This document shows positions 18,781 to 52,885 of a stretch of 64,000 nucleotides of DNA, one piece after another (the stretch's first letter is position 1; each line of letters begins with the position of its first letter). The translations under genes were made by a program, and so were the position numbers. The stretch comes from Myxococcota bacterium (GTDB lineage Bacteria; Myxococcota_A; UBA796; CAJQPC01). The notes below the pieces were generated by a model. It did not search any database. It worked only from the letters and a program-made list of their open reading frames with translations, and had not been told where the DNA came from. The stretch covers positions 1 through 64,000 of the forward strand of contig JAZAMN010000043.1 of the NCBI GenBank assembly GCA_036229005.1. Direction: 5' to 3'.

Positions 18781-19071
18781 GCGCGAGTGGTGCTGAACGC
18801 AACAACGGCGTGCGTAAGTGGCAGTGAACGCAACAGCGGCTTGCGCAAGTGGCGATGAATGCAACAACGCTCGGGTGGGTACGGGGCGGCGCTGTGCCAA
18901 GTTCTTGAAATCCCGTTCTGGCCTGGCTGGCGCGGGCGGCCATCCAGGCGGCGTTGTTGCGTTCAGCCGGACTTGCGCAGCGGGGTGTTGCGTTCAGCCG
19001 GACTTGCGCAGCGGGGTGTTGCGTTCAGCCGGACTTGCGCGGCGGGGTGTTGCGTTCAGCCGGACTTGCGC
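18781..19071. repeat. 31-bp-period inverted array, locus A (3 + 4 boxes)
   Basis: GCGCAAGT-N5-TGAACGCAACA variants at 18781, 18812, 18843; reverse complement at 18955, 18986, 19017, 19048; 88-bp core. Confidence 0.93.
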
Positions 19072-19084
19072 AGCGGGCCAACCC

Positions 19085-21427
19085 TCAGCCAGCCAGCGCC
19101 AGCGGCACGAAGGCCACCAGCACCAGCGCGATGCTCATGACGGTGAGCGGCAGCAGCAGGCGCTCGTGCTTGCGCCAGAAGGTGGTGGCGGGGACCTCTG
19201 CGGGGCCGGGGTCCTCGACCTCCTCCACGACCTGTCTGACCAGGAGGTGGTTCAGCGCGACCGGCGGGGTGAGGTACCCAAGCTCGAAGGCCACGAGCAC
19301 CACCATCCAGAAGTGCACCGGGTCGATGCCTGAGTTGTAGGCCACGTCCGCCAGGGTCGCCGAGACCAGGATCACCGCGCCGTAGGGGTCCATGGTCATG
19401 CCCACGACCACCAGTACGGCCACCAGCAGGCCCATCGCCGCCCAGGGGCTCGCGAAGCTCTCGGGGACCACGCTCATCAGCTCGGCGCGCTCCACCAGGC
19501 CACCCAGCGCCACGGACATCCCCATGAGCATGAGGAGGGCGCCGATGTGGACGGCGGCCTCGGCGGTCGCACCCTCGGTCTGGGTCAGCACCCGCGGGAT
19601 CTCTGCACCCTCCGGCAGCGGCGAGGACATCGGGTGCGCGCGCTTGCGCAGCCCGCGGTCCAGGGCCAGCATCGCCAGCAGGATCAGGGGCAGCACGATG
19701 GGGGCGCTGTGCTGGTCCAGACCGACCTCGAGCAGCAGCTTGTAGGCGCCCAGGATCACCGCGCCCAGCGCCAGCAGCAGGGCCAGGCCCTTGGCGGCGT
19801 CCAGGCTGCGGGCGCCGGCGTCGGGGGCCTTGTTCAGCTTCCAGTCGCCCTGCCGGGTGAAGAAGGTCACCACCGCGAACAGCCCGGCGGTCAGCAGGAA
19901 GACCCAGCGGCCCCAGCCAAAGAGCTCGGTGCTGGAGACCGGGTTCAGGTAGGCCACGATGACCACCAGCAGGCAGGGGGCCAGGACCACGCCCAGGCTG
20001 CCGGACATGGCGGCGCTGGCCATCGCCAGGCTCTTGCGGGAGCCAGCGGCCCGGAGCTCCTTGTAGAGGATGGCGCCCACCGCGATCACAAAGATTCCAG
20101 ACGCGCCCGAGTACGCCGTGGGCACCGCCGAGGCCACCACGACCACGATGGCCAGCAGCTCGGGGGCCATCCCCCAGGGCCGCAGGATGTCGAAGCTGCG
20201 GGTGGCGATGGAGCTGCGCTTGAGCAGCATGCCGGTCCACACGTACAGGCCCACCTGCAGGTAGAGCTGGGCGTGCTCGGTGAGCTTGTCCAGGTAGACC
20301 GCGATGCCCGAGTAGTACTGCTCGCCGATGAAGAACCAGGCGGCCGCCAGCAGGCCCATCCCCGCGTAGAGCGGCACCGTGAGCAGGGCCTGGGGCCAGG
20401 GGACCTCGGGGCCCTCCTTGGGCTTGGCCAGGTGGAAGATGTTGGCCGCGAGCATGCCCGCGAAGGTGCCCATCCAGAGCAGCGAGAGCTCGGGGTGCTC
20501 GGGCAGGATGCCGGACTCCACCCAGGCGTCCCGCTGGGCCATCAGCGAGCCCAGGACCAGGGTGTTGGCCAGGGCCTGCACGCCGGCGGAGACCTTGTCG
20601 CCGCGGGGGCCCTGGATGTTCCGCAGGGCGATGTGGTGGCGCGTCCAGCTCGCGGTCACGGCAGCCAGGCCCAGCAGCAGCACGAACAGGTGCTTGATGT
20701 GGCTGTTCACCCAGGTGATGAACTCGTCCAGGGCCATGTCGACCGCGGCGTAGCGCTTCACGGCGGGGGTGCGGCGGGCCAAGATGTCGTCGTAGCGCTC
20801 CTGCTCGCGCTCGAAGGCGGCCACCTGGCGCTCGTAGCGGGCCTGGGCGGGGTCGACCTTGGCGCTGGGCTCGCCGAGCAGGTCGCCGATGAGGTCGTTG
20901 TCGACGCCGTCTTCGGAGGAGGTGGATTCTGGGCCGGGCTCATCGGCGAGCAGGTCGCCGATGAGGTCGTCGTCCACACCGTCTGGGGAGCCGTCTGCTG
21001 CGGGCTCCTCTGCGATCGGCTCGTCGGCGAGGAGATCGCCGATGAGGTCGTCGTCGATCAGGCTGCCGTTGTCCTCGCTGGCGGCCGGATCCTCTGCGGG
21101 GTCGTCGGCCAGCAGATCCCCGATGAGGTCTGCATCGATGCCGTCGTCTGCCTCGGATCCCTCTCCCTCTCCCCCCAGAAGGTCCCCGATGAGGTCCTGA
21201 TCGACGTCCTCGTCCTGGGTCTCGGTGGGGGAGGGGGGCTCGGGGGCTTCCGGGCGGGTGGGCGCGCGGCGCAGCTCGGAGCCGTAGCCCGGCCAGAAGT
21301 GCTCGCCGGTCTGGATGACCTTGGACTGGAGCTGGGAGCCGTTCCACTGGACCAGGACGGCCAGAAGCACCGCCAGGATGGGCAGCGTGGAGGCGAAGCG
21401 ACGCAGCTTGGAGGGGGGGGCGCTCAC
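19085..21427 (-). CDS. TRAP transporter large permease (DctM-like) with acidic DLIGDLL repeat region
   Basis: TAYSGASG, SGSLGVVLAPC, GMTMDPYGA, GIDPVHFW, ELGYLTPPVALN; GTG start with GGAG RBS. Confidence 0.88.
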   Translation of the reverse strand: MSAPPSKLRRFASTLPILAVLLAVLVQWNGSQLQSKVIQTGEHFWPGYGSELRRAPTRPEAPEPPSPTETQDEDVDQDLIGDLLGGEGEGSEADDGIDADLIGDLLADDPAEDPAASEDNGSLIDDDLIGDLLADEPIAEEPAADGSPDGVDDDLIGDLLADEPGPESTSSEDGVDNDLIGDLLGEPSAKVDPAQARYERQVAAFEREQERYDDILARRTPAVKRYAAVDMALDEFITWVNSHIKHLFVLLLGLAAVTASWTRHHIALRNIQGPRGDKVSAGVQALANTLVLGSLMAQRDAWVESGILPEHPELSLLWMGTFAGMLAANIFHLAKPKEGPEVPWPQALLTVPLYAGMGLLAAAWFFIGEQYYSGIAVYLDKLTEHAQLYLQVGLYVWTGMLLKRSSIATRSFDILRPWGMAPELLAIVVVVASAVPTAYSGASGIFVIAVGAILYKELRAAGSRKSLAMASAAMSGSLGVVLAPCLLVVIVAYLNPVSSTELFGWGRWVFLLTAGLFAVVTFFTRQGDWKLNKAPDAGARSLDAAKGLALLLALGAVILGAYKLLLEVGLDQHSAPIVLPLILLAMLALDRGLRKRAHPMSSPLPEGAEIPRVLTQTEGATAEAAVHIGALLMLMGMSVALGGLVERAELMSVVPESFASPWAAMGLLVAVLVVVGMTMDPYGAVILVSATLADVAYNSGIDPVHFWMVVLVAFELGYLTPPVALNHLLVRQVVEEVEDPGPAEVPATTFWRKHERLLLPLTVMSIALVLVAFVPLALAG

Positions 21428-21540
21428 GGGGTCTCCCAGGGTGGCATCGCGGCAGGGTAGCAGGCGCGATGGGCGGGCACAGTGCTTGGCTGGCACGGTG
21501 CTTGCGAGGGTGTTCTCTGTCCCTTGTGGAGGAGACCCCG

Positions 21541-21870
21541 ATGAAGCGCCTTTCCCTGCTCGCTCTGCTGTCCCTGGCCGCCTGTGCCCCCTCCGAGGCG
21601 CAGATCGAGGCCCAGTGGGACGAGTTCCTGAGCGAGAACCAGAGCTGCGAGACCGTCGATGACTGCGTGATCGTCTACCCGGGCTGCCCCCTGGGCTGCG
21701 GGAGCGCGGTGTCGGTGGGGGCCGAGGAGGAGGCTCGGGAGCTCGCGGACTCGTTGGTCAACCGATACTCCCGGCTGCATGGGGAGTGCATGTACGACTG
21801 CATGGGGGTCGAAGCCGAGTGCAACGCGGGCGCTTGTGAGGCGGTCCCCGCGGACACGGGAATGGACTGA
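21541..21870 (+). CDS. Small Cys-rich lipoprotein
   Basis: MKRLSLLALLSLAAC; 8 further Cys; GGAGGAG RBS. Confidence 0.85.
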   Translation: MKRLSLLALLSLAACAPSEAQIEAQWDEFLSENQSCETVDDCVIVYPGCPLGCGSAVSVGAEEEARELADSLVNRYSRLHGECMYDCMGVEAECNAGACEAVPADTGMD

Positions 21871-21965
21871 GATCGCGACACCCAAGTCGCGGTTGCTGGC
21901 CCAGAGGGGGGGCTCTTGAATAGAGGGGGTGGACCGCGCGTTCTGCGCTTTGAGGAGACCCACCC

Positions 21966-22961
21966 ATGACCCTGATGCTCTCGCTGATCGCCTGTGGAAA
22001 CGGCTACCTGACCCCCGACGAGGTGCGTGAGCACCTGGACAACCCCACCGGCGCGGTGGAGGCGGGGACGCTGGGCAACGTCGCGGACGACTACTTCGAC
22101 GCGCAGATGGGCATGAACGCCCAGGACCTGGCCTTCTTCGTGAAGTCCGACCAGGGCGGCGGGAGCCGGGGGCGCGCTGAGCGCATGGCCGGGCTGCTGC
22201 GGAACTCGCCGCTGAACCAGACCCTGCCCAAGGCGACGGCTGGCGACATCTTCTGCGCGACGACCCTGGTGGCGCAGATCGCGACCTTCGACACCTGCGA
22301 GGACGAGGGGGACTGCGAGGCTGACCTGAGCATCGACGCCTGCGTGCTGCGCATGGGCGAGGGCGGGGACGAGAACGCCTCGGGCAAGCTGCACTTCTAC
22401 GTGTCGGAGCAGAGCAACGAGGAGCTGGACCGCGGCACCTTGGAGATCGAGTTCGACAAGTGGGAGTACACCGTCCAGTCGCCGAGCATCATCGACCACA
22501 CCGACGGGCTGCTGGCCTTCGAGTACAGCGACTACAAGACCGAGGGCCGCGCCGAGACCATCCTGAGCGTGGACCTGCTGCACAAGCAGTTCGACCAGGA
22601 CGCCGGCTTCTTCCGCAGCGGGGACCTGTTCGAGCACCGCAGCACCGCCGCGCTGCGCGCTGGCTTCGAGGAGACCGAGGACGGCGAGAAGGCCACCCTG
22701 GAGATCCTGGCCTTCACCGACGAGGACCGCACCGAGTCGCTGAACCTGCAGTTCGACTACGAGGCCACCTGGGTCTCCGACACCCACTCCACCTTCGAGG
22801 CGTCCATGACCGTCCTGGGCTCCAACGGCAGCTTCGTCTGCACCTGGTCCAGCGACGTGACCGAGGGCGCGGAGACCTTCTCCTACAGCTCCAACGGGAC
22901 CTGCGTGGATCAGGACGGGGAGAGCTTTGACTGGACGGGTGATCTGGTGGTGGAGGGCTGA
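21966..22961 (+). CDS. Hypothetical acidic, beta-rich lipoprotein
   Basis: MTLMLSLIAC; GAGGAG RBS; strong GC3 codon bias. Confidence 0.85.
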   Translation: MTLMLSLIACGNGYLTPDEVREHLDNPTGAVEAGTLGNVADDYFDAQMGMNAQDLAFFVKSDQGGGSRGRAERMAGLLRNSPLNQTLPKATAGDIFCATTLVAQIATFDTCEDEGDCEADLSIDACVLRMGEGGDENASGKLHFYVSEQSNEELDRGTLEIEFDKWEYTVQSPSIIDHTDGLLAFEYSDYKTEGRAETILSVDLLHKQFDQDAGFFRSGDLFEHRSTAALRAGFEETEDGEKATLEILAFTDEDRTESLNLQFDYEATWVSDTHSTFEASMTVLGSNGSFVCTWSSDVTEGAETFSYSSNGTCVDQDGESFDWTGDLVVEG

Positions 22962-22990
22962 GGCCCGCGGGGGAAACGGATCGCCCCGGG

Positions 22991-23186
22991 GGTATCAGGT
23001 ATCGGAGCTCAGGTGTCAGGGATGACGTCCTGACTGCTCCCGACGTCGGAGCTGGGCGCCGCGCTCGTAGGCTGCCAAGGCGCCCGACCCCGGCACTACC
23101 GCCATCGCCGGTAGCCGGTCGCCGGTCTCCGGTCCCCGTCCCCGAGACCTGATACCCGATACCTGAGACCTGACCCCCCGATACCC
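22991..23186. repeat. Inverted heptamer tandem-repeat element
   Basis: Left GGTATCA GGTATCG GAGCTCA GGTGTCA; right CCGGTAG CCGGTCG CCGGTCT CCGGTCC then CCGAGAC CTGATAC CCGATAC CTGAGAC CTGACCC. Confidence 0.75.
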
Positions 23187-23198
23187 CTCGGAGCCCCC

Positions 23199-26832: not shown

Positions 26833-28173
26833 ATGAAACATCCTCCCTCTCACGCTCTGAGTCGTTGGCTGCGCCAGGTGGGCGCCTTCCAGGTCCTGGA
26901 TGGGCTGGGCGACGCGCTGGATGACACGGCGGTGTTCATCGTGGATGCGGACCAGGAGGTCCTGTTCTGGAGCTCCGGTGCGGAGCGGCTGCTGGGGTGG
27001 ACGCCGGACCAGGTCATCGGCCAGCACTGTCTCAAGGCGAACCGCTGCCAGCAGTGCGTCCGGACCTGCGGGGTGCGGGAATACAGCCGGGTGAACGACA
27101 TGCCTCTGACCCTGTACCGGGAGGACGGGGCGCCGGTGCGGGTGCGCAAGTCGGCGCGGGCCTTCCAGGGTGCGGACGGGGCCTTCCTGGGCGCGATCGA
27201 GGTGCTGCAGCCGGACCGCAGCCTGGCGCCTTCGGAGACCCCCGCGCTGTCGGACCCGGGCGAGGACTTCCACGGGCTGCGCTCGGCGGACCCCGCGATG
27301 CGCCAGGTGTTTCAGGTGGTCCGAAACGTGGCGGAGACAGACGCCACCATCCTGGTCCGCGGGGAGTCGGGCACGGGCAAGGAGCTGATCGCCCAGGCCA
27401 TCCACCAGGAGTCCAACCGCCAGGACCGGCCCTTCTTCTCGGTCAACTGCGCCGCCCTGGGGGGCAATCTGTTGGAGTCGGAGCTCTTTGGCTACGTCGA
27501 GGGCGCGTTCCCTGGCGCCAAGCGCCCGCGGGAGGGGCTGCTCAAGCGCGCGGACGGCGGCGTTCTCTTCCTGGACGAGGTGGCTGAGCTGCCGCTGGAG
27601 CTCCAGGCCAAGCTCCTGGACCTGATCGAACAGCGTCGCTACGTGCCGCTGGGCGGGAGCGATCCGGTCGAGGTCGACCTGCGCATCATCGCGGCGACGC
27701 ACACCTCGCTGCGGCAGGCCGTTCGGGCGGGGCGTTTCCGCGAGGACCTGATGTACCGCCTGCGCGTGGTGCCTCTGTTCCTGCCGCCGCTGCGGGACCG
27801 CCGCGCGGACATCGAGCTGCTGCTGTGGGAGTTCATCTCCCGGCACAACGAGCGCGGGCCCCGCCGCATCGTCGAGGTGCAGCCCGAGGCCATGCGGGCG
27901 TTGCTGGACCACCACTGGCCGGGCAACGTGCGCGAGCTGCAGAACGTTGTGCAGTACGCGTTCGCGGTGGGGCGAGGTCCCCAGCTACGCCTTGCCGAGC
28001 TGCCGCCAGAGTTCCGCGAAGAGGAGGGCGGCTCCACCGCGCCCCCGCTGGACGAGGGCGCCCGCATCCGCTGGGCCTTGGCGCAGAGCAACGGGCACGT
28101 GGGAAAAGCCGCCGATCTCCTCAACATGAGCCGGCCGACCTTTTGGAGGCGGCGGAAGAAGCTCGGGATCTGA
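26833..28173 (+). CDS. PAS + AAA+ (sigma-54 activator family) + Fis HTH regulator
   Basis: GESGTGKE, ESELFG, GAFPGA, FLDEV, FREDLMYRL, WPGNVREL, C-terminal HTH; alternative start 26821. Confidence 0.92.
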   Translation: MKHPPSHALSRWLRQVGAFQVLDGLGDALDDTAVFIVDADQEVLFWSSGAERLLGWTPDQVIGQHCLKANRCQQCVRTCGVREYSRVNDMPLTLYREDGAPVRVRKSARAFQGADGAFLGAIEVLQPDRSLAPSETPALSDPGEDFHGLRSADPAMRQVFQVVRNVAETDATILVRGESGTGKELIAQAIHQESNRQDRPFFSVNCAALGGNLLESELFGYVEGAFPGAKRPREGLLKRADGGVLFLDEVAELPLELQAKLLDLIEQRRYVPLGGSDPVEVDLRIIAATHTSLRQAVRAGRFREDLMYRLRVVPLFLPPLRDRRADIELLLWEFISRHNERGPRRIVEVQPEAMRALLDHHWPGNVRELQNVVQYAFAVGRGPQLRLAELPPEFREEEGGSTAPPLDEGARIRWALAQSNGHVGKAADLLNMSRPTFWRRRKKLGI

Positions 28174-28827
28174 TTTCGGGCTCGCTCGCATTCTCCGGCT
28201 TTGCCGGAGGCGAGCCCGAAATCAGATCATCTCTTCTCCGGGGGGGAACCCCCCGGAATGCCCTTCGGGCACCCCCCGATTCATAGTCCAGGATCTTGGT
28301 CGGAAGGGGCTCGCTCGCTTGTCTCCGCTCTGCGGAGGCGAGCCCCCGATCTGATTTCGGGCTCGCTCGCATTCTCCGGCTTTGCCGGAGGCGAGCCCCC
28401 GATCTGATCTCGGGCTCGCTCGCATTCTCCGGCTTTGCCGGAGGCGAGCCCGAAATCAGATCATCTTCTCTCCGGGGGGAAACCCCCCGGAATGCCCGTC
28501 GGGCACCCCCCGCTTCGTAGTCCAGGATCTTGGTCGGAAGGGGCTCGCTCGCTTGTCTCCGCTTTGCGGAGGCGAGCCCCCCAATCAGATCATCTTCTCT
28601 CCGGGGGGGGAACCCCCCGGAATGCCCTTCGGGCACCCCCCGATCTGATTTCGGGCTCGCTCGCATTCTCCGGGCTTGCCGGAGGCGAGCCCTCCAATCA
28701 GATCATCTCTTCTCCGGGGGGAACCCCCCGGAATGCCCTTCGGGCACCCCCCGCTTCGTAGTCCAGGATCTTGGCCGGAGGGGCTCGCTCGCATTCTCCG
28801 GCTTTGCCGGGGGCGCCTCCGAGATCT
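28167..28827. repeat. Mosaic array of two hairpin modules (BIME/REPIN-like)
   Basis: 7 copies of GGGCTCGC..CTCCG..CGGAG-GCGAGCCC and 4 copies of CCG(6-8)AACCCCCCGG-AATGCCCTTCGGGCA-CCCCCCG. Confidence 0.92.
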
Positions 28828-28873
28828 GCTCGCTACCTCCCCCGTGGGGGGCTCGGAGGCCTATGATGCAGGG

Positions 28874-30187
28874 ATGTTGTTGCTCTGGACGCTGTTGGGC
28901 TGTGGGACCGAGACTCTGGAGCTGGAGTCTGGGGATTTGGTGCTGATGGGGGCGCGGCTGGCTGGCGAGTCCTCGCCCGTGGATGTGGTGGTGAGTGACG
29001 GGTACATCACCGCGATGCTGGAGCCTGGGACGGAGTTTGTTGGGGGAACCCAGGTCCTCGCAGAGGGACAAGTCCTCGCTCCAGGGCTGATCGACACCCA
29101 CGTCCACATCTGGGACGAAGGAGACCTGGTGCTCCACCCAGCCCGGGGCGTCACCACGGTGCGCAACCTCAGCGGCAGCGCGCTGCACCTGGACTGGCGA
29201 GAGCAGCTCCAGACAGGAGAGCGGCTGGGGCCCCGACTCCTGAGCAGCGGGCCCATCGTGGACGGCCCGGATGCCTACTGGCCCGGCAGCGCGATCGCGC
29301 GCGATGCGCAGGAAGGCGCCGAACGGGTTCGGGACCAACACGCGGCCGGATACGACCTGATCAAGGTCTACGACGCCCTTGAGCTGGAGACCTGGGAGGG
29401 CATCCTGGCCGAAGCCCAGAGGCTGGGGATGCCGGTCGCTGGCCACGTCCCTGACGCGGTCGGACACGAGGCCGTCGTCGCGAGCTCTCAGGCCTCCATC
29501 GAGCACCTGGACGACTTCCTGGCACACGTCAGCGGACACAGCCCCGGCCTGAGCTTCTCCCCCGATGCCGGACAAGCCGCGCTCGCCGACCTGGACGACG
29601 CGCGCGCAATGGAGCTCGCCCACGTCAGCGCGGGCGACGGCGTGTTCTACGTGCCCACGCTCTCGGTGATGTCCCAGTACGGCCAGGCCTCGAGCTGGGA
29701 CTTCGACGACCCGCGCCTGGCCGCCATCAACCCCCAGGTGGTCCAGAGCTGGCGCCAGACCCAGGGCTACATCAGCCCGGAGTCAGAGGCCTGGTTCGCC
29801 GACTACAGCGAGGCGCTGTGTGGCTTCGTAGCGACACTCGACGAAGCCGGCGCGTCGCTGGCCCTGGGGACCGACACCTACAACGCCTTCGTTCTGCCCG
29901 GCTGGGCCGTGCACGAAGAGATGCAGGCGATGGTCGACTGCGGGCTCCCCATCGAGCGCGTGCTCGCGCTGGCCACCCAGGACGCCGCCGCGCTGCTGGG
30001 GCAGTCCGGAGAGCTGGGTGTGCTGGCGGTCGGAGCCCGCGCCGACATCCTGATCCTGGACCAGGATCCCGTGCTGGACCTGCAGACCCTGGCGGAGCCC
30101 GCCGCGGTGGTGCTCGGTGGGCACTACCTGAGCGCGGAAGAGCTCGCAGAGGCCGTCCAACAGGTCGAGGCCGGCTACGCTCAGTGA
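28874..30187 (+). CDS. Amidohydrolase family lipoprotein
   Basis: PGLIDTHVH, GVTTVR, IKVY, GHVP, SIEH, GTD, GARADILIL; MLLLWTLLGC. Confidence 0.9.
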   Translation: MLLLWTLLGCGTETLELESGDLVLMGARLAGESSPVDVVVSDGYITAMLEPGTEFVGGTQVLAEGQVLAPGLIDTHVHIWDEGDLVLHPARGVTTVRNLSGSALHLDWREQLQTGERLGPRLLSSGPIVDGPDAYWPGSAIARDAQEGAERVRDQHAAGYDLIKVYDALELETWEGILAEAQRLGMPVAGHVPDAVGHEAVVASSQASIEHLDDFLAHVSGHSPGLSFSPDAGQAALADLDDARAMELAHVSAGDGVFYVPTLSVMSQYGQASSWDFDDPRLAAINPQVVQSWRQTQGYISPESEAWFADYSEALCGFVATLDEAGASLALGTDTYNAFVLPGWAVHEEMQAMVDCGLPIERVLALATQDAAALLGQSGELGVLAVGARADILILDQDPVLDLQTLAEPAAVVLGGHYLSAEELAEAVQQVEAGYAQ

Positions 30188-30224: not shown

Positions 30225-31313
30225 TCAACGCCGGCGCCGAAGCACCAACCCCAGCACCGCCAGCAGCCCCAGCGCGCTCAGCCCCCGGCCACCAGGAAGG
30301 CTGCTGCACCCGCCACCGCCGGCGTAGCCGACCCGGGCGCTCCCGCTCTCGCTGGACTCCAGGCCGCTGGTCTCGCCGACGGGGCCCATCCAGAACTCCG
30401 CGGGAGCGCTCCAGCCGCTCTCGGCGCCGCCGGCATCCACGGCCTGGGCGCGCCAGGAATAGGCACCCTCTTCCAGAGGCTCCTCGGGGGTCCAGGCGCT
30501 GCGGTCTTCGCCCTCCTGGATGTCGGTCGCGCTCAGGATGACCTCGCCGGTGGAGTCCAGCAGCTCGAAGTCGTAGCGCAACGCATCGGCCTCGGGGTCT
30601 GCCGAGTTGCTCAGCACAAGCACCGGCTGCTCCTCCAAGGAGACCCCCTCCTTGGGAGACACCAGGACGGGCACGCTGGGCGCGCTGTTGATGTCGCTAG
30701 CCAGGATCCAGACTTCGCTGGGCTCGGACAGGCGCAGGCCGTCGCTGGCCTGGGCGCGCAGGCGGTAGAGGTGGTCCTCCTCCAGGCTCAGCGCCCAGCC
30801 GCTGGTCCCCGGGCCGGCGGTCTGGAGCTCGGTCTGGTCCAAGAGCACGCCGGTCTCGCTGTAGAGGGCCAGGAGCTGCCACTCGCCGCGCTGCTCGGCG
30901 TCCACGCCGTGCTGGATCTGGACGCTGGCCTCAGTCCCCACGATCTCGCCGACCTCCCACACGGGCGCGCTGGGCGGGTCGTTGGTGGTGGTCATGAAGA
31001 AGCAGGCGGTGTCGCTGACCGCCTCCTCGACGCCGTCGGTGGCGACGCCGTACCAGCAGGTCCAGGTGTCCTCGGCCAGGGGCTCGACCAACTGGAGGCT
31101 GGCCCAGGTGCCGTCCAGAGTCGCCGGCCCATCCAGCAGGGGGACGCCGTCCAGGGTCTCCACGTGGACGTGGTAGGTCAGCGCCAAGCCCGCGACCTGG
31201 TCCAGGCGAAGCTCGGGGGTGGGGTCCGCGATGACCGCGCCGTCCACAGGCGCTGAGATTTCGGGGGCGTCAAAGGTAGCCGCCTGGGCGGCCAGGCTCA
31301 GCAGCAGGGTCAT
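30225..31313 (-). CDS. Secreted Ig/Fn3-like repeat protein with MYXO-CTERM sorting signal
   Basis: NxxPSxP repeats, YSWRAQAVD, C-terminus GGGGCSS...LGLLAVLGLVLRRRR; GGAGGA RBS. Confidence 0.85.
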   Translation of the reverse strand: MTLLLSLAAQAATFDAPEISAPVDGAVIADPTPELRLDQVAGLALTYHVHVETLDGVPLLDGPATLDGTWASLQLVEPLAEDTWTCWYGVATDGVEEAVSDTACFFMTTTNDPPSAPVWEVGEIVGTEASVQIQHGVDAEQRGEWQLLALYSETGVLLDQTELQTAGPGTSGWALSLEEDHLYRLRAQASDGLRLSEPSEVWILASDINSAPSVPVLVSPKEGVSLEEQPVLVLSNSADPEADALRYDFELLDSTGEVILSATDIQEGEDRSAWTPEEPLEEGAYSWRAQAVDAGGAESGWSAPAEFWMGPVGETSGLESSESGSARVGYAGGGGCSSLPGGRGLSALGLLAVLGLVLRRRR

Positions 31314-31395
31314 GTTTTCCTCCTGCTCTCAGCCTTGCCGCGGGGCCTCTGGGGTGCCACTGACAACTTTCTGACAGGTAGCAGTGCCCGCAGCC

Positions 31396-31681
31396 GCGCG
31401 AGTCCCCGCGAACGCAACACGGCGCTGCGCAAGTCCCCACGAACGCAACACGGCGCTGCGCAAGTCCCCACGAACGCAACACGGCACTGCGCAAGTCCCC
31501 GCGAGTGCAACACCTGGCGGCGCCAAGACCCCAGAACAGGGCCGGGCTGTTGCGTTCACCCCCACTTGCGCGGCGGCCCGTTGCGTTCACCCCGAGTTGC
31601 GCGGCGGCCCGTTGCGTTCACCCCAACTTGCGCAGCCGCCCGTTGCGTTCACCCGCACTTGCGCGGCCACCCGTTGCGTTT
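31396..31681. repeat. 31-bp-period inverted array, locus B (4 + 4 boxes plus a partial)
   Basis: GCGCAAGT-N5-CGAACGCAACA variants at 31396, 31427, 31458, 31489; YGTTGCGTTCA-N5-ACTTGCGC at 31548, 31579, 31610, 31641, partial 31672; 35-bp core. Confidence 0.93.
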
Positions 31682-31696: not shown

Positions 31697-32242
31697 TCAG
31701 ACCGGCGCCAGCACCACGATCCCGTAGACCACCGCGTCCACCTGGCCGACGCTGCCGTAGCTGTGCGGAATGTCGCCCCGAAACACACACACGTCGCCGG
31801 CGTGGGCCACGAAGGCCTGGCCGCCCACCCGCAGGTCGACCACCCCGCGCTCGCAGTGCATGTACTCCCGCGTCCCGGGCAGGTGAGGCACCCCCCGAAT
31901 GCGACTCCCGGGCGGGATCTCCATGCGCGTGATCTCGGTGCCCGGGAGGTTGTCGGGCAGCAGGTTGCGCAGGGTCGCGCGGCCGCGGGGCTCGCTGGGG
32001 AGCTCCGCCGCGGTGTAGAGCCGGCCCAGCCCAGCCGGTGCCGAGAGCAGCTCGTCGATGCGCACCTGCAGGGCCCCCGCCAGTGCACCGAGCACCACCA
32101 GCGTGGGGTTCCCCGAGCCGGTCTCCAGGTTGGCCAGAGTGGACCGGGGCAGTCCCGCGCGCTGGGCAAGGCGGGCCTGGGTGAGCCCCGCGCGCTTGCG
32201 CAGAGTCTGCAGGTTCGCGGCCAGGTTCGAGGACAGCTCCAT
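31697..32242 (-). CDS. XRE-family HTH regulator with cupin domain
   Basis: LRKRAGLTQARLA...LANLETGSGNPTL; HLPGTREY, FRGDIPHSY. Confidence 0.92.
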   Translation of the reverse strand: MELSSNLAANLQTLRKRAGLTQARLAQRAGLPRSTLANLETGSGNPTLVVLGALAGALQVRIDELLSAPAGLGRLYTAAELPSEPRGRATLRNLLPDNLPGTEITRMEIPPGSRIRGVPHLPGTREYMHCERGVVDLRVGGQAFVAHAGDVCVFRGDIPHSYGSVGQVDAVVYGIVVLAPV

Positions 32243-39620: not shown

Positions 39621-40547
39621 ATGTCCGAGTTCAGCATCCCCGTCATTGACATGGCCCTGTTCGCCGATCCCGCCACCCGCCAGGGCTTCGTGGAGGACCT
39701 GGGCGCGGCCCTGTCCGAGGTCGGCTTCGTGGCCGTCTTGAACCACGGCATCGACAAGGACCTGCTGGCCAACAGCTACGAGAGCGCGGCCGAGGTGTTC
39801 GCGCTCCCCGACAGCGTCAAGCGCCAGTACGAGACCCCCGAGAACGGCCGCCAGCGCGGCTACACCAGCTTTGGCGTGGAGCACGCCAAGGACGTCGCGG
39901 CGCCCGACCTCAAGGAGTTCTGGCACGTGGGGCGCACCCTCGCCGCCGACCACCCCCTCCACGTGGCCGGCGATGTGCCCGCGAACCTCTTCCCCGCCGA
40001 GGTCCCCGCCTTCGGGGCCAACCTCACCGAGCTGTTCTCCCAGATGGAGGACTTCGCCAACCGGCTCCTGGTCGCGTTCGGTGACTACCTGGGGCTGCCC
40101 GCGGACTACTTCACCAAGCTGATCACCGACGGGAACTCCCTGGTCCGCATCATCAACTACCCCCCCGTCCCCGAGGGCTCCCTCCAGGGGATGGTGCGGG
40201 CGGCCGCGCACGAGGACATCAACCTCATCACCGTGCTGCCCTACGCCTCCAACCCCGGGCTGCAGATCCTCACCCGCGACGGCCAGTGGCTGGACGTGAC
40301 CACGCCCCCCGACGTGATGATCTGCGACACCGGCGACATGATGGCGCTGCTCACCAACGGCCAGGTCCCCTCCTGCACCCACCGCGTGGTGAACCCCGAC
40401 GGCGACGACGGCGGCCGCATGTCCATGCCCTTCTTCCTGCACCCCCACCCGGACAAGGTGCTGACCCCCTTCCGCGAGGGAGACGCAAAGCCGGTCAAGG
40501 CCCGCGACTTCCTGCACAAGCGGCTCAAGGAGATCGGCGTCGCGTGA
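39621..40547 (+). CDS. 2OG-Fe(II) oxygenase, isopenicillin N synthase family
   Basis: RAAAHEDIN (HxD), THRVVNP, RMSMPFFLHP; GGAGG RBS. Confidence 0.93.
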   Translation: MSEFSIPVIDMALFADPATRQGFVEDLGAALSEVGFVAVLNHGIDKDLLANSYESAAEVFALPDSVKRQYETPENGRQRGYTSFGVEHAKDVAAPDLKEFWHVGRTLAADHPLHVAGDVPANLFPAEVPAFGANLTELFSQMEDFANRLLVAFGDYLGLPADYFTKLITDGNSLVRIINYPPVPEGSLQGMVRAAAHEDINLITVLPYASNPGLQILTRDGQWLDVTTPPDVMICDTGDMMALLTNGQVPSCTHRVVNPDGDDGGRMSMPFFLHPHPDKVLTPFREGDAKPVKARDFLHKRLKEIGVA

Positions 40548-40556: not shown

Positions 40557-40861
40557 GGGGGGCATCCACCCCTGAACGCCGCTTATCGGGGGGCATCCGC
40601 CCCTGAACGCCGCTTGGCGGGGGGCATCCGCCCCTGAACGCCGCTTGTCGGGGGGCATCCCGCTCTGAACGCCCGTTTTGGCGGCGGATCCGGCCGGATT
40701 GGGGGAGCCTTGGACCTGTACCCATCCTGGGCTGACAGGATTCCAGGCACTTGGCGCGCAGGCCTCCGAAGGGCGCGGGCATTCACCCCCGGATGCCCCC
40801 GCCCGGCGTGCGTTCGCCCCCGGATGCCCCCGCCCGGCGTGCGTTCACCCCCGGATGCCCC
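40557..40861. repeat. 31-bp-period inverted array, locus C (4 + 3 boxes)
   Basis: GGGGGGCATCC-N5-TGAACGC with TGAACGC at 40573, 40604, 40635, 40666; GCRTTCR-CCCCC-GGATGCCCC at 40779, 40810, 40841. Confidence 0.93.
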
Positions 40862-40864: not shown

Positions 40865-41623
40865 TCAGAGCCCCTGAACCTGCTCGACCAACTCATCTTC
40901 GGACCACTCGTTGTCCGAGGCCGCCCAGATCACCTTGCCGTCCGCGTCGATCAGCAGGGTGCGCAGGTTGTGCAGGATGTCCTTCTCCTGCTGCTCGCGG
41001 GTCACGCCGGCGTAGACCAGCAGCTCCTGCAGCTCGGCCAGCTCCACCCGCCCAAATGTCCAGACTGCGGGGTCGGCGCCCTTGTCTTGGCCGTAGGCCT
41101 GGAGCACCTCCAGGCTGTCGTTCTCCGGGTCCAGGGTCACCGCCAGGATGGTGGCCTTGCCCTGGATTCCCTCCTGGACCTTTGCGAGCTTGAACGCCAG
41201 CAATGGGCAGTAGGCGGGGAGGGGGCAGCTCGTGAACAGGAAGGTCAGGATCACCGGGCCGTCCTGGCCCACGCCCACGACCTTCTCGCCCTGCAGGGTG
41301 GGCACCGTGTGCTTGGGGAAGGGCTCGCCGAGCTGCACCGGGCGGGCCTTGCCGACGGGCGCGTGCCCCGTGACCTTGAACCCGATGGCGCGCATGCCCT
41401 GCTCGGTGTTCATCAGGTTCGCGTTCACCACGTCCCCGGGCTGCACCTTGCGGGCCAGGTTCGGGTCGACGATGAAGCTGTCCCGACCAGGCTCCATCAC
41501 GCCTTCGACCCCCTGGTGCTCCAGGACCACGGCCGTGCCGCCGGCCTCCAGGACGGTGCCTTGGGTGGCGTGCACGTCGCCGCCGTAGAAGTTGCAGGCC
41601 ATCAGCAAGGACATGAGCATCAT
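40865..41623 (-). CDS. SCO family lipoprotein with N-terminal CusF-like copper-binding domain
   Basis: FTSCPLPAYCP, TLDPEND, ILHN; N-terminal H..V.GVM motif. Confidence 0.87.
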   Translation of the reverse strand: MMLMSLLMACNFYGGDVHATQGTVLEAGGTAVVLEHQGVEGVMEPGRDSFIVDPNLARKVQPGDVVNANLMNTEQGMRAIGFKVTGHAPVGKARPVQLGEPFPKHTVPTLQGEKVVGVGQDGPVILTFLFTSCPLPAYCPLLAFKLAKVQEGIQGKATILAVTLDPENDSLEVLQAYGQDKGADPAVWTFGRVELAELQELLVYAGVTREQQEKDILHNLRTLLIDADGKVIWAASDNEWSEDELVEQVQGL

Positions 41624-42538: not shown

Positions 42539-43225
42539 ATGCGTCGTCTGCTGCTTCCTTCCTTCCTCACCGCCTTCGCTGGCCTGGCCCTGGCCTGTGG
42601 GATGGGCGATCGCGAGGAGCCCCAGGACACCTGGCTCGTGGCCGGGGACGCCGACACGGACGCTGACAGCGACTCCGACACGGACTCCGACTCCGACGCC
42701 GACTCGGACAGCGACGCGGACTCCGACTCGGACTCCGACTCGGACGCTGACTCCGACGCCGACAGCGACGCGGATTCGGACGCGGACAGCGACGCGGACA
42801 CGGATCCGGCGCCGACGACCTACATCGGGACGGAGCGGTTCCTCTACGCGCTGGCCCCGGAACCCGGCAAGTACGAATGCGACATGCGCTGGAAGACCGC
42901 CGGTGTGCCCGTGTCGCCTTGCTCGGGGTGCGAGTTCGCGTTCGAGATCGAGGGGGTGTTCCAGAAGGGCGTCAGCGTCGTCGACGACGCCTGCAGCGGC
43001 TTGGCCACCGACATGTCCTTCTACTACGGCTACCACCCCAGCTACGGCAGCTACGGGGAGGCGCTGCTCTACAGCACGGACGGGACCACCTGGGGGGTCA
43101 TCGCGACGGACGTGAGCCTGTCGGGCACCAAGTTCGACTACAGCTGGGGCTACGAGGACAGCCCCTACGGCGAGTACTACTACTACTACACCAACAAGTG
43201 GTCGGGCACCGCGACGGTCAAGTAG
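42539..43225 (+). CDS. Lipoprotein with D(S/A/T) dipeptide repeat tract and Tyr-rich domain
   Basis: LALAC lipobox; about 50-residue DSDADS tract; CSGC. Confidence 0.85.
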
Positions 43226-44317: not shown

Positions 44318-44326
44318 CGCTTCCTC

Positions 44327-47699: not shown

Positions 47700-47794
47700 G
47701 CTCCCTTCTCCAGGGAAGTGCGGCGGGGGGGTTTACAACCTGCCTCGTCCCCACCACTCTGGGGTCAGGTCTGGGCAGGACCTGGAGGGGAGAA

Positions 47795-49236: not shown

Positions 49237-49305
49237 GTCTGCGCGCGCAGGGTCCCGCCCCAGGCGGGGCCCTGTCTGTGCGATCCTGCTCCCCAGGAGA
49301 CGACC

Positions 49306-50103
49306 GTGCACGCGAGATCCACCCTGCCTCTGGGCCTGCCCAGCGGCCTGCACCTGGGCCTGTCGTTGGCCTTGCCGCTGGCCTTGGGCGCCTGCGTCCC
49401 AGGGCCGCTGGTCGTGGCCACCCCGCCGGGCCGTGAACCCATCACCAACCTGGACGCGATGGAGGACGGGCAGACCGAACTCAGCGGCGCGCTGGGCGCC
49501 AGCGTGCTCCTGGACGACGACGGGCCCAGCGCACTCTTCCTGGACGCGGCCACCCTGGGCCCTCCGTGGACCTTGGCCGCTGCGCACAGCATCGACCGCT
49601 TCGAGCTGCGGGCGGCGTGGAACAAGACCATCCTGTGGAACCAGGGGAACCTGGGCGTGGGGGTGCGCCTTCCCTCCTTGGGCGCCTGGGATTTCGCGAT
49701 CGACGGCGGCTACGCCTTCGGCGGCTACGCCGACACCTTCACCATCGAAGAGGGCGACGAGAGCGAAGCCGCCGAGCTCCGCGAGCCAGGCACCTACAGC
49801 TACGCCTACCGCATGCACGCCCCCTACGGCCGGGCGCGGGCGGTCTACCGCGTGCGCGACGGCGTCTCCATCCCGCTGGCCCTGCGCATGTCCCACGCGT
49901 GGACCCAGAACCAGGGCGGCGTGCTCCCCCAGGAGCTCCAGCAGCAGAGCTTCCCGGAGCTCAGCGTGGGCGTGATCCTCACGCCGCCGCGCACCTGCCT
50001 GCAGGCCGGGGTCGGCATCCACTACACCGTCCTCCCCGACGTCTACGCGCCGATGGTGCAGGGCGCGCTGTCCTGCGTGTTCGCGGTCAAGGAGCGCACC
50101 TGA
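49306..50103 (+). CDS. Putative beta-barrel lipoprotein, paralog 3 of 4
   Basis: LGAC; YAYRMHAPYGRAR; TCLQAGVG...QGALSC; AGGAG RBS. Confidence 0.78.
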   Translation: MHARSTLPLGLPSGLHLGLSLALPLALGACVPGPLVVATPPGREPITNLDAMEDGQTELSGALGASVLLDDDGPSALFLDAATLGPPWTLAAAHSIDRFELRAAWNKTILWNQGNLGVGVRLPSLGAWDFAIDGGYAFGGYADTFTIEEGDESEAAELREPGTYSYAYRMHAPYGRARAVYRVRDGVSIPLALRMSHAWTQNQGGVLPQELQQQSFPELSVGVILTPPRTCLQAGVGIHYTVLPDVYAPMVQGALSCVFAVKERT

Positions 50104-50165
50104 GCGCTTGTGGTCCACCTGGGTTTGTGGCAGGTTCCAGGGGTCAGGGCCCCTTGGGGGCGAAC

Positions 50166-50903
50166 ATGGTCAAATCACTGCCCGCCGCGCTGGCTCTGCT
50201 GGGGCTGGGCGCCTGCGTCTCGGGGCCCACCGTGCTGGTGACCGCCCCCGCGCGGGAGCCCGTCTCGAACCTGGATGCGATGGCGCCGGGTCAGACGGAG
50301 CTGAGCGGCTCGCTGGGGGTCTCGCTCTACGCAGACGACAAGACGGTGGCGGTCTATCCGCTGGATCTCCCCACCCTGGGCAGCCCCTGGACCCTGGCGG
50401 CTGCGCACTCCGTGGGGCCCGTCGAGCTGCGGGGCGCCTACAACCGCAGCCTGCTCTGGGACCAGGGCAATGTTGGGGTGGGGCTGCGGCTCCCCTCGCC
50501 AGGACCCTGGGACTTTGTGGTGGACGGGGGCTACGCCTTCGGCGGCTACGCCGGCAGCTACAGCGTCGGCGAGGAGGACGACGCTCGAGAGGTCCCCTAC
50601 GCCTATCGCATGCACGCTCCCTACGGCCGGGCGCGCGTCGTCCGCTCGGTGGGGGACATCCTCTCGGTGGTCGGCGCCCTGCGGGTGGCCCACGCCTGGA
50701 CCCAGCCCGTTGAGGGCGTCAGCGCGCAGAACATGGAGCAGCAGACCTTCCCCGAGCTCAGCCTGGGGCTGGTCCACAGCGCCCCAAAGACCTGCCTGCA
50801 GGTGGGTGTGGGTGGGCACTATGTGCCCGTCGAACAGGTGCACAGCGTGCAGCTGCAGGGGGCCCTGTCGTGTGCGTTCGACGTGGGGAGCTGGAGGCGC
50901 TGA
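50166..50903 (+). CDS. Putative beta-barrel lipoprotein, paralog 4 of 4
   Basis: LGAC; highly similar to 49306..50103. Confidence 0.78.
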   Translation: MVKSLPAALALLGLGACVSGPTVLVTAPAREPVSNLDAMAPGQTELSGSLGVSLYADDKTVAVYPLDLPTLGSPWTLAAAHSVGPVELRGAYNRSLLWDQGNVGVGLRLPSPGPWDFVVDGGYAFGGYAGSYSVGEEDDAREVPYAYRMHAPYGRARVVRSVGDILSVVGALRVAHAWTQPVEGVSAQNMEQQTFPELSLGLVHSAPKTCLQVGVGGHYVPVEQVHSVQLQGALSCAFDVGSWRR

Positions 50904-50931
50904 ACCGGTGGATTCAGGCCTCCAGCAGAGC

Positions 50932-51099
50932 TCACAGCTCGGGCCGGCGGAGGGCGGCAGGTGGTTGGAGTTCCCGAGCGAGGGTGATGCCCGCCGCGCT
51001 CAGGAATGCGTAGATGCCCATGCTCGCGAAGAGCAGCGCCATTCCGCGCATCACCCAGAGCTCCTTGGCCTTGAGGGTGCGGAGCTTCGCTCGGACCAT
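50932..51099 (-). CDS. Small (55 aa) single-TM protein, below the ORF-track cut-off
   Basis: MVRAKLRTLKAKELWVMRGMALLFASMGIYAFLSAAGITLARELQPPAALRRPEL; fills the intergenic gap. Confidence 0.5.
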   Translation of the reverse strand: MVRAKLRTLKAKELWVMRGMALLFASMGIYAFLSAAGITLARELQPPAALRRPEL

Positions 51100-51158
51100 C
51101 CAGGCCCCGCCGCCAAAGCAGAGGGGGGCCCGAATCGACGCAGCCGCTACGATTCCCC

Positions 51159-52637
51159 ATGCGCCCGGATCTCCTCCTGCTGGACGTCGGCGGTGTGCTC
51201 CTGCAGCCCGCCGAGCCCGTCGACGCCACCTACCTCCGCATGGGCCGCCCCCACGGGGTGGAGCAGGTCGACTTCCGCCGCGCCTTCGCCCAGGTCTCCG
51301 GCCGCCAGCTCATGGACGGCCGCCCCTACTGGCGCGCGGTGGTGCGCGAGGCCACCGGCTGCGCGGACCCCACTTACTTCGAGGCCCTCTACCAGCACTA
51401 CGCCCAGCCCCAGGCCTGGCGCGTCGCGCCGGGCGCTCTGCCCCTCATCGACACCCTCCGCGCGCAGGGCACCCCCGTCGCCCTGGTCTCCAACTGGGAC
51501 ACCCGCCTGCGCGGCACCCTCCGCGCCATGGGTCTGCTCGACCGCGTCGACGCGCTCTTCGTCTCCGGCGAGCTGGGCGTCGAGAAGCCCGATCCCCGCA
51601 TCTTCCACCTGGCCTGCCGCCGCTTCGGTGTGCCCCCCAGCCGCGCCCTGATGGTCGGCGACTCCTGGTCCAAGGACGTCCACGGCGCCATCTTCGCGGG
51701 CGTGCCCGGGCTCCACTTTGGCGCACAGGTCAGCGACTTCCGCGACCTGGCGCGTTGGCTGGAGCGCCCTCCTTGGCACGCAGACGCGGTGCTCACGCTG
51801 CCCCAGGCCCGAGCCGTCGCCGCCGGCATCCCCGAGCTCGCGGACCAGCCCGTCGCGCCGCTCGGCCAGGGCTGGGACAGCACGGTCTACTCCGTGGGGG
51901 CCCAAGCAGTTCTGCGCGCGCCCCGCCGCCCCTTGGGGGCCGTCAGCCTGCACACCGAGCTGCAGGTCCTGCGCGCCCTGGATCTCCCCGGGGTCCCGAA
52001 GCTGCTCAGGGTGACCTCGCCGGTGGAGGGGTTTCCCTACGCGGTGGCGTGCTTTGAGCGGGTCGGAGGGGTGAGTCTCGAGCGCTGGGAGGGCCCCGAT
52101 CGCCGCCTCCTGGCCCACAGCCTCGGAGAGTTCTTGAGGGCGCTGCATGGGCAGGTGGACGCGCGGGCCGGGCCCGACACTCTGGGTCGCTTGGAGCCCC
52201 AGAGACTCCAGCGATCCATCCACCAGCGAGGACAGGCTGCCGTGGACGACGGCTGGCTCTCACAGCCCCCCGTCGCGCCCCCGGTCGAGTCCGTGGAGCA
52301 CGCTACCGCTCTGGTCCACGGGGACCTCTACGCCCGGCACATCCACGTGGACGCAGCGGGCGCGCTGGTCGGGCTGGTGGACTGGGGCGATGTGCACCTG
52401 GGCCACCCCGCGGTGGACCTGGCCGGTGTGCTGGGCGTGCTCCCGCCGACCCTGCGCTCGGTGTTCCTGGACGCCTACGGCTCCGTGTCACCCGGGACCC
52501 TGGCGCTGGCGCGCCTGCGGGGCATGCACCACCAGTTGGGGGTGCTCGCCTACGCGATGGACATCGGGGATCGGCCTCTGGCGCACACAGCGCGGCTGGC
52601 GCTGGGGTGGCTGGGGGAGGCTACGACCTCTGAGTGA
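51159..52637 (+). CDS. HAD-like hydrolase fused to an APH/choline-kinase-like phosphotransferase
   Basis: LLDVGGVL, VSNWD, EKPDPRIF, MVGDS; then LGQGWD, LVHGDL, LVDWGD. Confidence 0.88.
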   Translation: MRPDLLLLDVGGVLLQPAEPVDATYLRMGRPHGVEQVDFRRAFAQVSGRQLMDGRPYWRAVVREATGCADPTYFEALYQHYAQPQAWRVAPGALPLIDTLRAQGTPVALVSNWDTRLRGTLRAMGLLDRVDALFVSGELGVEKPDPRIFHLACRRFGVPPSRALMVGDSWSKDVHGAIFAGVPGLHFGAQVSDFRDLARWLERPPWHADAVLTLPQARAVAAGIPELADQPVAPLGQGWDSTVYSVGAQAVLRAPRRPLGAVSLHTELQVLRALDLPGVPKLLRVTSPVEGFPYAVACFERVGGVSLERWEGPDRRLLAHSLGEFLRALHGQVDARAGPDTLGRLEPQRLQRSIHQRGQAAVDDGWLSQPPVAPPVESVEHATALVHGDLYARHIHVDAAGALVGLVDWGDVHLGHPAVDLAGVLGVLPPTLRSVFLDAYGSVSPGTLALARLRGMHHQLGVLAYAMDIGDRPLAHTARLALGWLGEATTSE

Positions 52638-52885
52638 GCGGGGAGGGGAGGCTACGCCCCCTGGATGAGCGATGTTCTGAGGCTACGCCCCACCAGTGAG
52701 CGCTCGGGCCACCGATCAGGCCCTGAAGCGGCCAATTTCCGGCCGATTTCCACTGTTCTGGGCCCAGATTGCCCCCAAAGCAGCCGATTCGGTCACCCGA
52801 TCGCTCACTGAGCACCCGTAGCCGCGACAGACCGCTCACTCGGACCCGGTAGCCACCCCCCTGCGCTCACTTAGCCCCGGTAGCC
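52619..52885. repeat. 31-bp-period inverted array, locus D (3 + 3 boxes)
   Basis: GGCTAC-N8-RRTGAGCG at 52619, 52650, 52681; CGCTCACT-N8-GTAGCC at 52802, 52833, 52864; 99-bp core. Confidence 0.9.

Follow-up and report, generated by a model that had tools for sequence, protein, structure and literature searches.

Four intergenic loci in a 64-kb stretch of Myxococcota DNA (the window, positions 1 to 64000 of contig C43 in genome G000, which is 6.4 Mb long with 70% G+C and is 94% complete) belong to a repeat family in which two inward-facing arms of boxes, repeated every 31 bp, flank a core that spans a whole number of helical turns. The explanation that we favor, and consider probable, is that these loci are copies of a phased family of non-autonomous elements that are bound as duplex DNA and spread by a cognate protein combining an HUH/Y1 enzyme with a helix-turn-helix (HTH) domain. 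The pairing of each box class with one enzyme paralogue, which is repeated in other genomes, and the element-free orthologous sites of congeners both point to non-autonomous mobile elements, an alternative that had been raised in an earlier reading of the window (the original prediction).

The original prediction had located four loci, A to D, with boxes at an exact 31-bp period. All four were recovered at those positions, with 7, 8, 7, and 6 complete boxes, respectively, and 20 of 20 intervals between adjacent boxes were exactly 31 bp. A gene 3' end lies within 33 bp of every one of them, in agreement with the statement that each abuts a gene. The boxes do share a hexamer, as claimed, although its correct form is YSARYG (unit positions 16 to 21) and not YGARYG. 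In the D boxes the homologous word is TGAGTG or TCAGTG, the TGAGCG that had been cited sitting 4 bp further on, and in this register four of the six boxes misfit YGARYG. The metagenome runs that contain this stretch are seawater or marine, with no RNA run among those listed.

A dispersed family with phased cores

A second scan of the genome found 215 segments in 118 loci, which bears out the prediction of a dispersed family. The genome-wide 31-bp autocorrelation scan that had been proposed, which is blind to sequence, detected 181 arrays of period 31 and none at periods 29, 32, and 34. There were 566 exact boxes in the genome, and reversing the genome left none; among 342 close same-strand box spacings, 334 were 31, 62, or 93 bp; and 110 of 117 neighboring arm pairs face inward. 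Each unit consists of half-box 1, a 7-bp G/C spacer, half-box 2 beginning with the shared SARYG, and a linker. The boxes fall into five classes within the genome (Table 1), consistent with the several specificity classes that had been anticipated. Both arms are of one class in 109 of 110 elements, and the number of boxes per arm ranges from 2 to 7 across the family. Variable positions are 56 to 84% identical within arms, compared with 35 to 56% between elements.

None of the 110 paired elements, all with center distances below 250 bp, has a core that carries an open reading frame and might thus be an autonomous copy. Several of the unpaired arms have degenerate partners detected by BLAST or stop at contig ends, so that a long copy that has collapsed may exist. 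The suggestion of transposon-type ends was not supported, since there is neither a conserved outer terminus nor an excess of target duplications. Nothing in the data pointed to a partition role like that of P1 parS, although no test was aimed at it. No letters are conserved beyond the outermost box in any class, no terminal word is enriched at the 103 element ends that are not beside a stop codon, and the longest shared flank word was 4.87, compared with 4.71 in shuffled pairs (110 elements, the exact ends of which are uncertain).

The distances between the innermost box centers of the two arms cluster at 41, 51/52, 62, 72, 83, 93, 103, 113/114, 124, 134, 144, 155, and 176 bp. The best-fit period of these distances is 10.35 bp (R = 0.95), and not one of the 110 is more than 2 bp from the 10.35-bp lattice, where about 39% would be expected by chance for each. 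Overlooking an inner box would change a distance by three turns (31 bp) and therefore cannot create the lattice pattern. In other genomes, 27 of 27, 17 of 17, and 4 of 4 distances fit the lattice, the 27 being counted after the removal of six congener loci that had been retrieved twice and one (+,+) pair. Together with the 31-bp period, the whole-turn distances support the proposal that the boxes lie on one helical face. Most core sequences, at lengths of 41 to 176 bp from center to center, have no BLAST match to other cores; for a few cores, sister copies on different contigs are 81 to 95% identical.

Signals of bending were also found in the cores. IHF-like words (CAAG-N4-TGAAAT-like) occur in 11 of 13 long cores of classes A, C, and E, but in only 1 of 45 short cores and, among the long cores of classes D and F, in 1 of 40. 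Such candidate words fit the comparison with IHF-binding BIME elements made in the original prediction. They lie 0.35 to 0.41 turn out from a box center, at one helical phase relative to the boxes, in 11 of 11 cases, and G000 has seven genes of the HU/IHF family. In the D cores, A/T tracts recur with a periodicity of 10.4 to 10.5 bp, and the amplitude at 10.35 bp is 387, compared with a maximum of 60 in 500 shuffles (30 cores). Phased cores and bending signals are properties of duplex DNA.

The putative partner enzyme and its pairing with box classes

When the reading frames beside the elements were clustered, one protein family recurred in G000 and in two congeners. A profile search of G000 returned exactly five paralogues, one per box class (Table 1). 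The two independent paralogues, on contigs C21 and C27, filled the two missing classes, against a background of 207 of 5320 genes (3.9%) that have an arm within 300 bp. Elements lie directly on both sides of one of the five genes and on one side of three; the remaining gene is cut off by a contig end.

The paralogues are 258 to 278 amino acids long, are 52 to 69% identical, and contain HuH, Y---NP, and WPWS motifs. HVH or HIH is present at residues 43 to 45 and Y99-I-H-L-N-P is present in seven of seven aligned proteins, which agrees with the TnpA(Y1) class 2 signature given in PMC6006769, and the HUH and catalytic Tyr residues are invariant or nearly so among 96 homologues; the homologues found number 1157. 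A structure model (predicted local distance difference test score, 97) matches Escherichia coli TnpA_REP (PDB 4ER8) over residues 1 to 151 (Foldseek E value of 5e-5; Z of 11.2; root mean square deviation of 2.5 Å over 132 residues) and DnaA domain IV over residues 167 to 242/244 (Z of 4.6 to 4.8; for 1j1v, Z of 4.8 and root mean square deviation of 2.1 Å over 76 residues). The HTH_23 profile matches 19 of 96 members at an E value of ≤0.05 (best, 2.7e-5). The protein is predicted from the model to consist of a TnpA_REP-like domain and a C-terminal HTH with a DnaA-domain-IV-like fold. On the basis of domain content, membership of TnpA(Y1) subgroup 2.1.2/TIRYT is likely. Scores against NF047646 were 31 to 37 bits, compared with a cut-off of 80, the proteins being about 100 residues longer, and the PF01797 profile had no match in G000, so that this standard profile misses the partner.

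The pairing was followed in other genomes. The box pattern is present in 4 of 40 relatives, and each of these four encodes the protein. In 10 others the protein occurs in the absence of that pattern; both boxes and protein are missing from congener G003 (95% complete). In the flanks of 39 homologues outside the genus, word matches at lag 31 numbered 283 upstream and 195 downstream; at the remaining lags (32 excepted) there were 9 to 87 matches, and distant control stretches gave 46. Of 46 loci, 32 are flanked by two-armed elements with box sequences of their own and a period of 31 or 32; the count outside the genus is 27 of 39. None of 89 control stretches, searched over a slightly narrower span, reached the element threshold. 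In a further set of homologues, in which some metagenome loci repeat loci already counted in genomes, elements were found at 17 of 25 close loci, 4 of 32 middle loci (with odd periods and at threshold), and 0 of 44 distant loci. Elements are on both sides of the gene at 4 of 32 positive homologous loci. Two-armed copies without an enzyme gene lie on the same lattice in G008 (15 arm pairs, 13 of them away from listed paralogues), G021 (2), and G283 (4). Anchoring on YSARY placed several 32-bp families in the wrong register (e.g., 92, 93, and 119; 95 and 96), and the distances from those families are weaker evidence than the G000, G008, G021, and G283 sets.

A second kind of array was found at the middle tier, where palindromic arrays have a period of 51 (10 of 32 loci) or 52 (6 of 32 loci), which is five turns, compared with 2 of 44 distant loci. 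At L141, L144, L145, L149, L152, L180, L181, and L188, sister-clade HUH-HTH genes are flanked by tandem palindromic 51/52-bp units; at L141, arrays in inverted orientation stand on either side of the gene, and the unit resembles two class-A/E-type boxes placed head to head. Just upstream of two HUH-HTH genes of G002 are palindromic words with a 25-bp period (L073:2353-2427 and L120:1824-1876), which may be operators or another type of repeat. In Actinomycetota (Pseudonocardia and others; L016, L017, L022, L025 to L027, L035, L038, L040, L047, and L048, among others), single tandem arrays of 3 to 9 copies of a 31-bp palindromic unit occur at gene 3' ends. These arrays were excluded from the family because their palindromic unit is different and there is no second arm.

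The similarity of recognition helices tracks half-box 2 after overall similarity is removed (partial r = 0.19; partial Mantel P = 0.009). Where the HTH has Arg220, C occupies a particular half-box position in 16 of 17 cases; without Arg220, it does so in 5 of 18.

Turnover of the elements and competing explanations

Orthologous sites in congeners were compared with those of the window. In syntenic regions, sites A and C are each element-free in three of three congeners, the two genes flanking site C ending about 6 to 19 bp apart, and site B is element-free in G001. Site D in G001 holds about 4 kb of other genes between the HAD/APH and RlmD-like genes and is not a clean empty site. No 31/32-bp arrays were found in the regions examined, which covered 54 kb in G001 and 30 kb in G003. 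The element-free congener sites are most simply explained by gain in this lineage, although loss is possible. Arms also vary by whole units, since exactly one 31-bp unit is absent from the left arm of element B in the strain of run X3. A gene 3' end lies within 60 bp of 85 of 110 elements, and in 13 elements the stop codon is inside an arm. Among elements with two called neighbors, 55 of 99 lie between convergent genes, compared with 844 of 5246 gene pairs, the neighbor genes being called by the analysis's own codon model.

A separate observation concerns contig C57 (L122:7700-13800; G000:C57:100199-106321), where two genes share about 84 first residues and a class-E element precedes each. The block between these two elements is thinly covered in runs X2 and X3, and no contig spans the junction; the low cover hints at duplication or deletion at the elements.

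In the mechanism that we propose, the HTH would read the inner half-box (half-box 2) in duplex DNA and so fix the class, and several protomers would align on one DNA face, one every three turns. IHF or intrinsic curvature would bend the core back, bringing both arms together in one complex, and the core length would be quantized because both arms must meet in this bent complex. The HUH domain would then nick and rejoin a locally unpaired strand via a 5'-phosphotyrosine, as TnpA_REP does, and the element would be copied in near gene 3' ends or stop codons. Arms would grow or shrink by whole 31-bp units, as modeled for bacterial interspersed mosaic elements (BIMEs) (PMC3333891). A broader form of this mechanism is possible, though we think it rather doubtful: this Y1 branch may have shifted from single-strand hairpins to an origin- or relaxosome-like duplex complex, in which a DnaA-like HTH with a readable residue-base code sets protomers every three turns, the arms are folded by IHF or curvature, and DNA is opened and nicked without a replication fork. 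The 51/52-bp arrays would then represent a second geometry.

Several findings weigh against spread by a duplex-binding enzyme. Both A and B also occur in the related strains of runs X2 and X3, where no presence/absence polymorphism was found within the species. Of the homologous loci outside the genus, 12 of 39 had no element that reached threshold, and the same was true of 8 of 25 further close loci. Only the paralogues on C21 and C27 are independent, the other three being seeds found beside elements, and the C27 case is a single D box. The IHF pattern is a consensus that was tuned after the cores were inspected, the partial Mantel P value of 0.009 is one of 24 tests, and the Arg220 link is not significant when phylogenetically corrected (four independent pairs; median P = 0.25; underpowered). 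The Z score of the DnaA-IV match is middling, and the Pfam HTH matches are below cut-off. All four elements of the window can form long single-strand hairpins (z of -3.7 to -11.2), and duplex action would be a departure from E. coli TnpA_REP, which did not bind double-stranded substrates (PMC3333891). The steps of binding, nicking, and insertion are ones that we infer.

The persistence of A and B in related strains would suit domesticated chromosome-architecture sites, at which the host keeps a looped complex of HUH-HTH protein and IHF, e.g., as a topological insulator between convergent genes, and copying is rare or ancient. The bias toward convergent genes and the lattice held in all 110 copies, even though most cores share no detectable sequence, fit the same role, and repetitive extragenic palindromic sequences (REPs) are reported to act as topological insulators and to be sites for IHF and gyrase (PMC3333891). 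We nevertheless consider this explanation unlikely. Occurrence is patchy, with one congener, G003, lacking boxes and protein; element sites differ between congeners; the catalytic HUH and Tyr residues are conserved in the 96 homologues; and five classes per genome fit the turnover of repeats and enzymes better than one host function. Selection against insertions elsewhere would also be expected to produce the bias toward 3' ends. An architectural role is compatible with spread by the enzyme.

The hairpins of the four elements raise a different possibility, namely, that the arms pair on a single strand of DNA or RNA in a fold-back like that of REPINs (REP doublets forming hairpins), with the hairpin as the substrate and the phasing as a by-product. 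The Y1 enzymes studied require single-stranded DNA (PMC6006769 and PMC3333891), and the position behind stop codons is REP-like. This fold-back is improbable, however, because a hairpin loop has no helical constraint, yet these loops are whole turns with duplex bending signals. Spacers are less identical to those of their own partner arm (0.36) than to those of other elements' arms (0.49; P = 8e-11), which is the opposite of selection for pairing, although local strand skew could also cause it. Only five GT[AG]G-plus-stem matches were found among 744 boxes, and Rfam gave no gathering-score match across the window.

Finally, the boxes could serve an unrelated protein, either a DDE transposase with multi-site ends or an Lrp-type wrapping regulator, with the HUH genes merely being neighbors. 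Sites of Lrp-type regulators lie about 31 bp apart, and a period of 31 bp with 3 to 5 boxes per arm fits a wrapping oligomer. Each HUH paralogue, however, has one class, a pairing that recurs in other genomes with different box sequences, and there are no conserved termini or target duplications. Among the reading frames clustered beside the elements, only common host families otherwise recur in several genomes. An unrelated binder thus appears very improbable.

Spread by the cognate HUH-HTH protein is therefore the explanation that we retain. It gives TnpA(Y1) subclass 2.1, for which no REP-like target was found in PMC6006769, candidate substrates, and it provides dozens of natural enzyme-box pairs with differing sequences, five of them within one genome. 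It also makes a sharp geometric prediction, in that lengthening the core by 5 bp should break the arrangement and lengthening it by 10 bp should restore it. If duplex, phase-dependent recognition is true, Y1 transposases could no longer be regarded as readers of single-strand hairpins alone. The system would then offer a natural HTH recognition code on a compact (~260-amino-acid) predicted nickase and a tractable model of how dispersed bacterial repeats arise, homogenize, and perhaps become domesticated.

Features of the window and relation to known systems

Table 1. Box classes, enzyme paralogues, and features of the window (window positions, or contig and position in G000 for the paralogues)
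Feature	Position	Strand	Remarks
Class A box			GCGCAAG/SAACGCAAC (half-box 1/half-box 2)
Class E box			GCGCAAC/GARTGCACC
Class C box			GGGCATC/SAACGCCCG
Class D box			GGCTAC/SARTGAGCG
Class F box			GAGCTAC/SARTGCGCG
Paralogue	C32:32302-33138		Beside class A (class of elements A and B)
Paralogue	C24:38089-38889		Beside class C, elements on both sides
Paralogue	C27:37209-37985		Beside class D, one box at contig end
Paralogue	C21:19780-20583		Beside class E
Paralogue	C52:40968-41744		Beside class F
Element A box centers	18791, 18822, 18853 (+); 18968, 18999, 19030, 19061 (-)	+/-
Element A left arm	18781..18865	+	Three class-A boxes (GCGCAAG-N7-SAACGCAAC), period 31
Element A core	18866..18955		Arm-to-arm center distance 115 bp = 11 helical turns
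IHF-like motif, A core	18898..18911	+	Candidate; 45 bp from innermost left box center
Element A right arm	18956..19071	-	Four class-A boxes
Element B box centers	31406, 31437, 31468, 31499 (+); 31561, 31592, 31623, 31654 (-)	+/-	Plus a partial fifth box
Element B left arm	31396..31511	+	Four class-A boxes
Element B core	31512..31548		Short; center distance 62 bp = 6 turns
Element B right arm	31549..31681	-	Four class-A boxes and partial fifth
Element C box centers	40570, 40601, 40632, 40663 (+); 40788, 40819, 40850 (-)	+/-
Element C left arm	40560..40675	+	Four class-C boxes (GGGCATC-N7-SAACGCCC)
Element C core	40676..40775		Center distance 125 bp = 12 turns
IHF-like motif, C core	40740..40753	-	Candidate; 35 bp from innermost right box center
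Element C right arm	40776..40860	-	Three class-C boxes
Element D box centers	52628, 52659, 52690 (+); 52814, 52845, 52876 (-)	+/-
Element D left arm	52619..52702	+	Three class-D boxes (GGCTAC-N7-SARTGAGCG)
Element D core	52703..52801		A/T tracts phased at ~10.4-10.5 bp; CACCGAT-type inverted ends; 124 bp = 12 turns
Element D right arm	52802..52885	-	Three class-D boxes
Host gene, TRAP DctM	19085..21427	-	3' end adjoins element A; outside element
Host gene, HTH-cupin regulator	31697..32242	-	3' end adjoins element B; outside element
Host gene, 2OG-Fe(II) oxygenase	39621..40547	+	Convergent onto element C
Host gene, SCO1/SenC	40865..41623	-	Convergent onto element C
Host gene, HAD + APH	51159..52637	+	Convergent onto element D; ends inside its first box
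Host gene, RNA uracil-5 methyltransferase, RlmD-like	52904..54280	-	Convergent onto element D

The TGA stop of the HAD/phosphotransferase gene upstream of element D falls in the first D box. Beside element A, two tandem paralogues (17002-18730) stand where congeners have one gene, the extra copy adjoining the element. Near element B, a CTGACA-N7-CTGACA direct repeat (31360-31378) lies upstream of gene 30225-31313 and is a possible operator; it is retained in G001 beside the element-free B site. Elsewhere in the window, positions 28160-28880 hold a distinct cluster of palindromic repeats with 19-bp perfect arms and periods of 53, 111, and 234 bp. The core word of this repeat occurs five times in the genome, always in that cluster, 364 bp of which are skipped in the strains of runs X2 and X3. 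At 49306-50903 there are paralogous genes in tandem, 821 bp apart, and at 42623-42820 there is a coding repeat with 6/12-bp periods, rich in Asp and Ser.

No published account of 31-bp arms, whole-turn cores, or paralogue-specific classes was found, in a search that did not cover subscription papers, figures, and supplements. The novelty is narrower than the original prediction had supposed, because the partner proteins belong to the TnpA(Y1) class 2 superfamily, already described, and resemble TIRYTs; what that search did not find in print is the phased duplex geometry. The TIRtrons/TIRYTs of Di Nocera et al. (2013; PMC3733652) are probably the same as subgroup 2.1.2 of TnpA(Y1) subclass 2.1 (Quentin et al. 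2018; PMC6006769). The latter source describes subgroup 2.1.2 as having DnaA_C/HTH tails, reports no REP-like sequences nearby, equates the subgroup with TIRYT, finds subclass 2.1 in 14.9% of surveyed strains, and leaves the role of the DnaA-like domain open. TIRYT/subclass 2.1 is equated with group 1 of the REP-associated tyrosine transposases (RAYTs) in bioRxiv 10.1101/2020.03.09.984088, which reports no inverted repeats beside group 1 genes of picocyanobacteria, and group 1 RAYTs with low-copy flanking 16-mers are described in PMC5581495. The biochemistry of REP-associated enzymes has been carried out on single strands (PMC3333891 and PMC8266576).

Like TIRtrons/TIRYTs, the partner described here has an HUH and Y---NP core, a C-terminal DnaA_C/HTH_23-like domain, no canonical REPs, and a gene accompanied by inverted repeats. 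TIRtrons carry a GGGGWSAS motif, and their flanking inverted repeats can form dispersed families, some of them as dimers or clusters (PMC3733652). Among 752 units, GGGGWSAS has 22 exact occurrences, all at unit position 12, where there are also 121 with one mismatch; most boxes are not exact, and the match covers only the spacer and the class-invariant YSAR. This overlap at the sequence level suggests common descent of the box. Unlike TIRtrons as described in the text of those papers, which give the target of the HTH as unknown, the present system has bipartite tandem boxes, a 31-bp period, a quantized core, and IHF-like or A-tract signals in the core. Its repeat is also a self-contained two-armed element that mostly flanks the gene on a single side, and the roughly 120 copies fall into five classes, each specific to one paralogue.

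The REP, BIME, and REPIN systems of TnpA_REP (RAYT groups 2 and 3; E. coli REPtron, PDB 4ER8) share with it the catalytic fold, one repeat family per enzyme gene, and intergenic, multi-copy repeats behind stop codons, whose tandem units are locally homogenized and variable in copy number. They differ in their units, which are GTAG/GTGG-footed single-strand hairpins, as opposed to direct-repeat arms with duplex phasing. Canonical REP/BIME/REPIN was rejected, there being five GT[AG]G-plus-stem matches in 110 elements and 744 boxes and a partner that falls below the NF047646 and PF01797 cut-offs. E. coli BIME-1/RIB has inverted repeats around an IHF-type site at gene 3' ends (PMC3333891), resembling the elements here that carry an IHF-like motif, but its linker is conserved and it has one REP per arm, whereas the elements here have 2 to 7 boxes per arm and unrelated cores of quantized length, many of which carry A/T tracts in place of an IHF-like motif. 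Like miniature inverted-repeat transposable elements (MITEs) of DDE insertion sequences, they are short, non-coding, multi-copy, and inverted in symmetry and are presumably moved in trans. A classical MITE was rejected, as neither a conserved terminal inverted repeat nor excess target duplication was found and the partner is a tyrosine HUH enzyme.

In relaxosomes, such as that of the F oriT with IHF, and in the complex of the adeno-associated virus Rep protein with its binding element, an HUH nickase is placed by duplex sites and bending before one strand is nicked. Those proteins belong to different HUH families, and the present system lacks a helicase domain and transfer genes as well as a conserved nick site. 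By these comparisons, the system is set apart from canonical REPs and MITEs and works like a REPtron or TIRtron.

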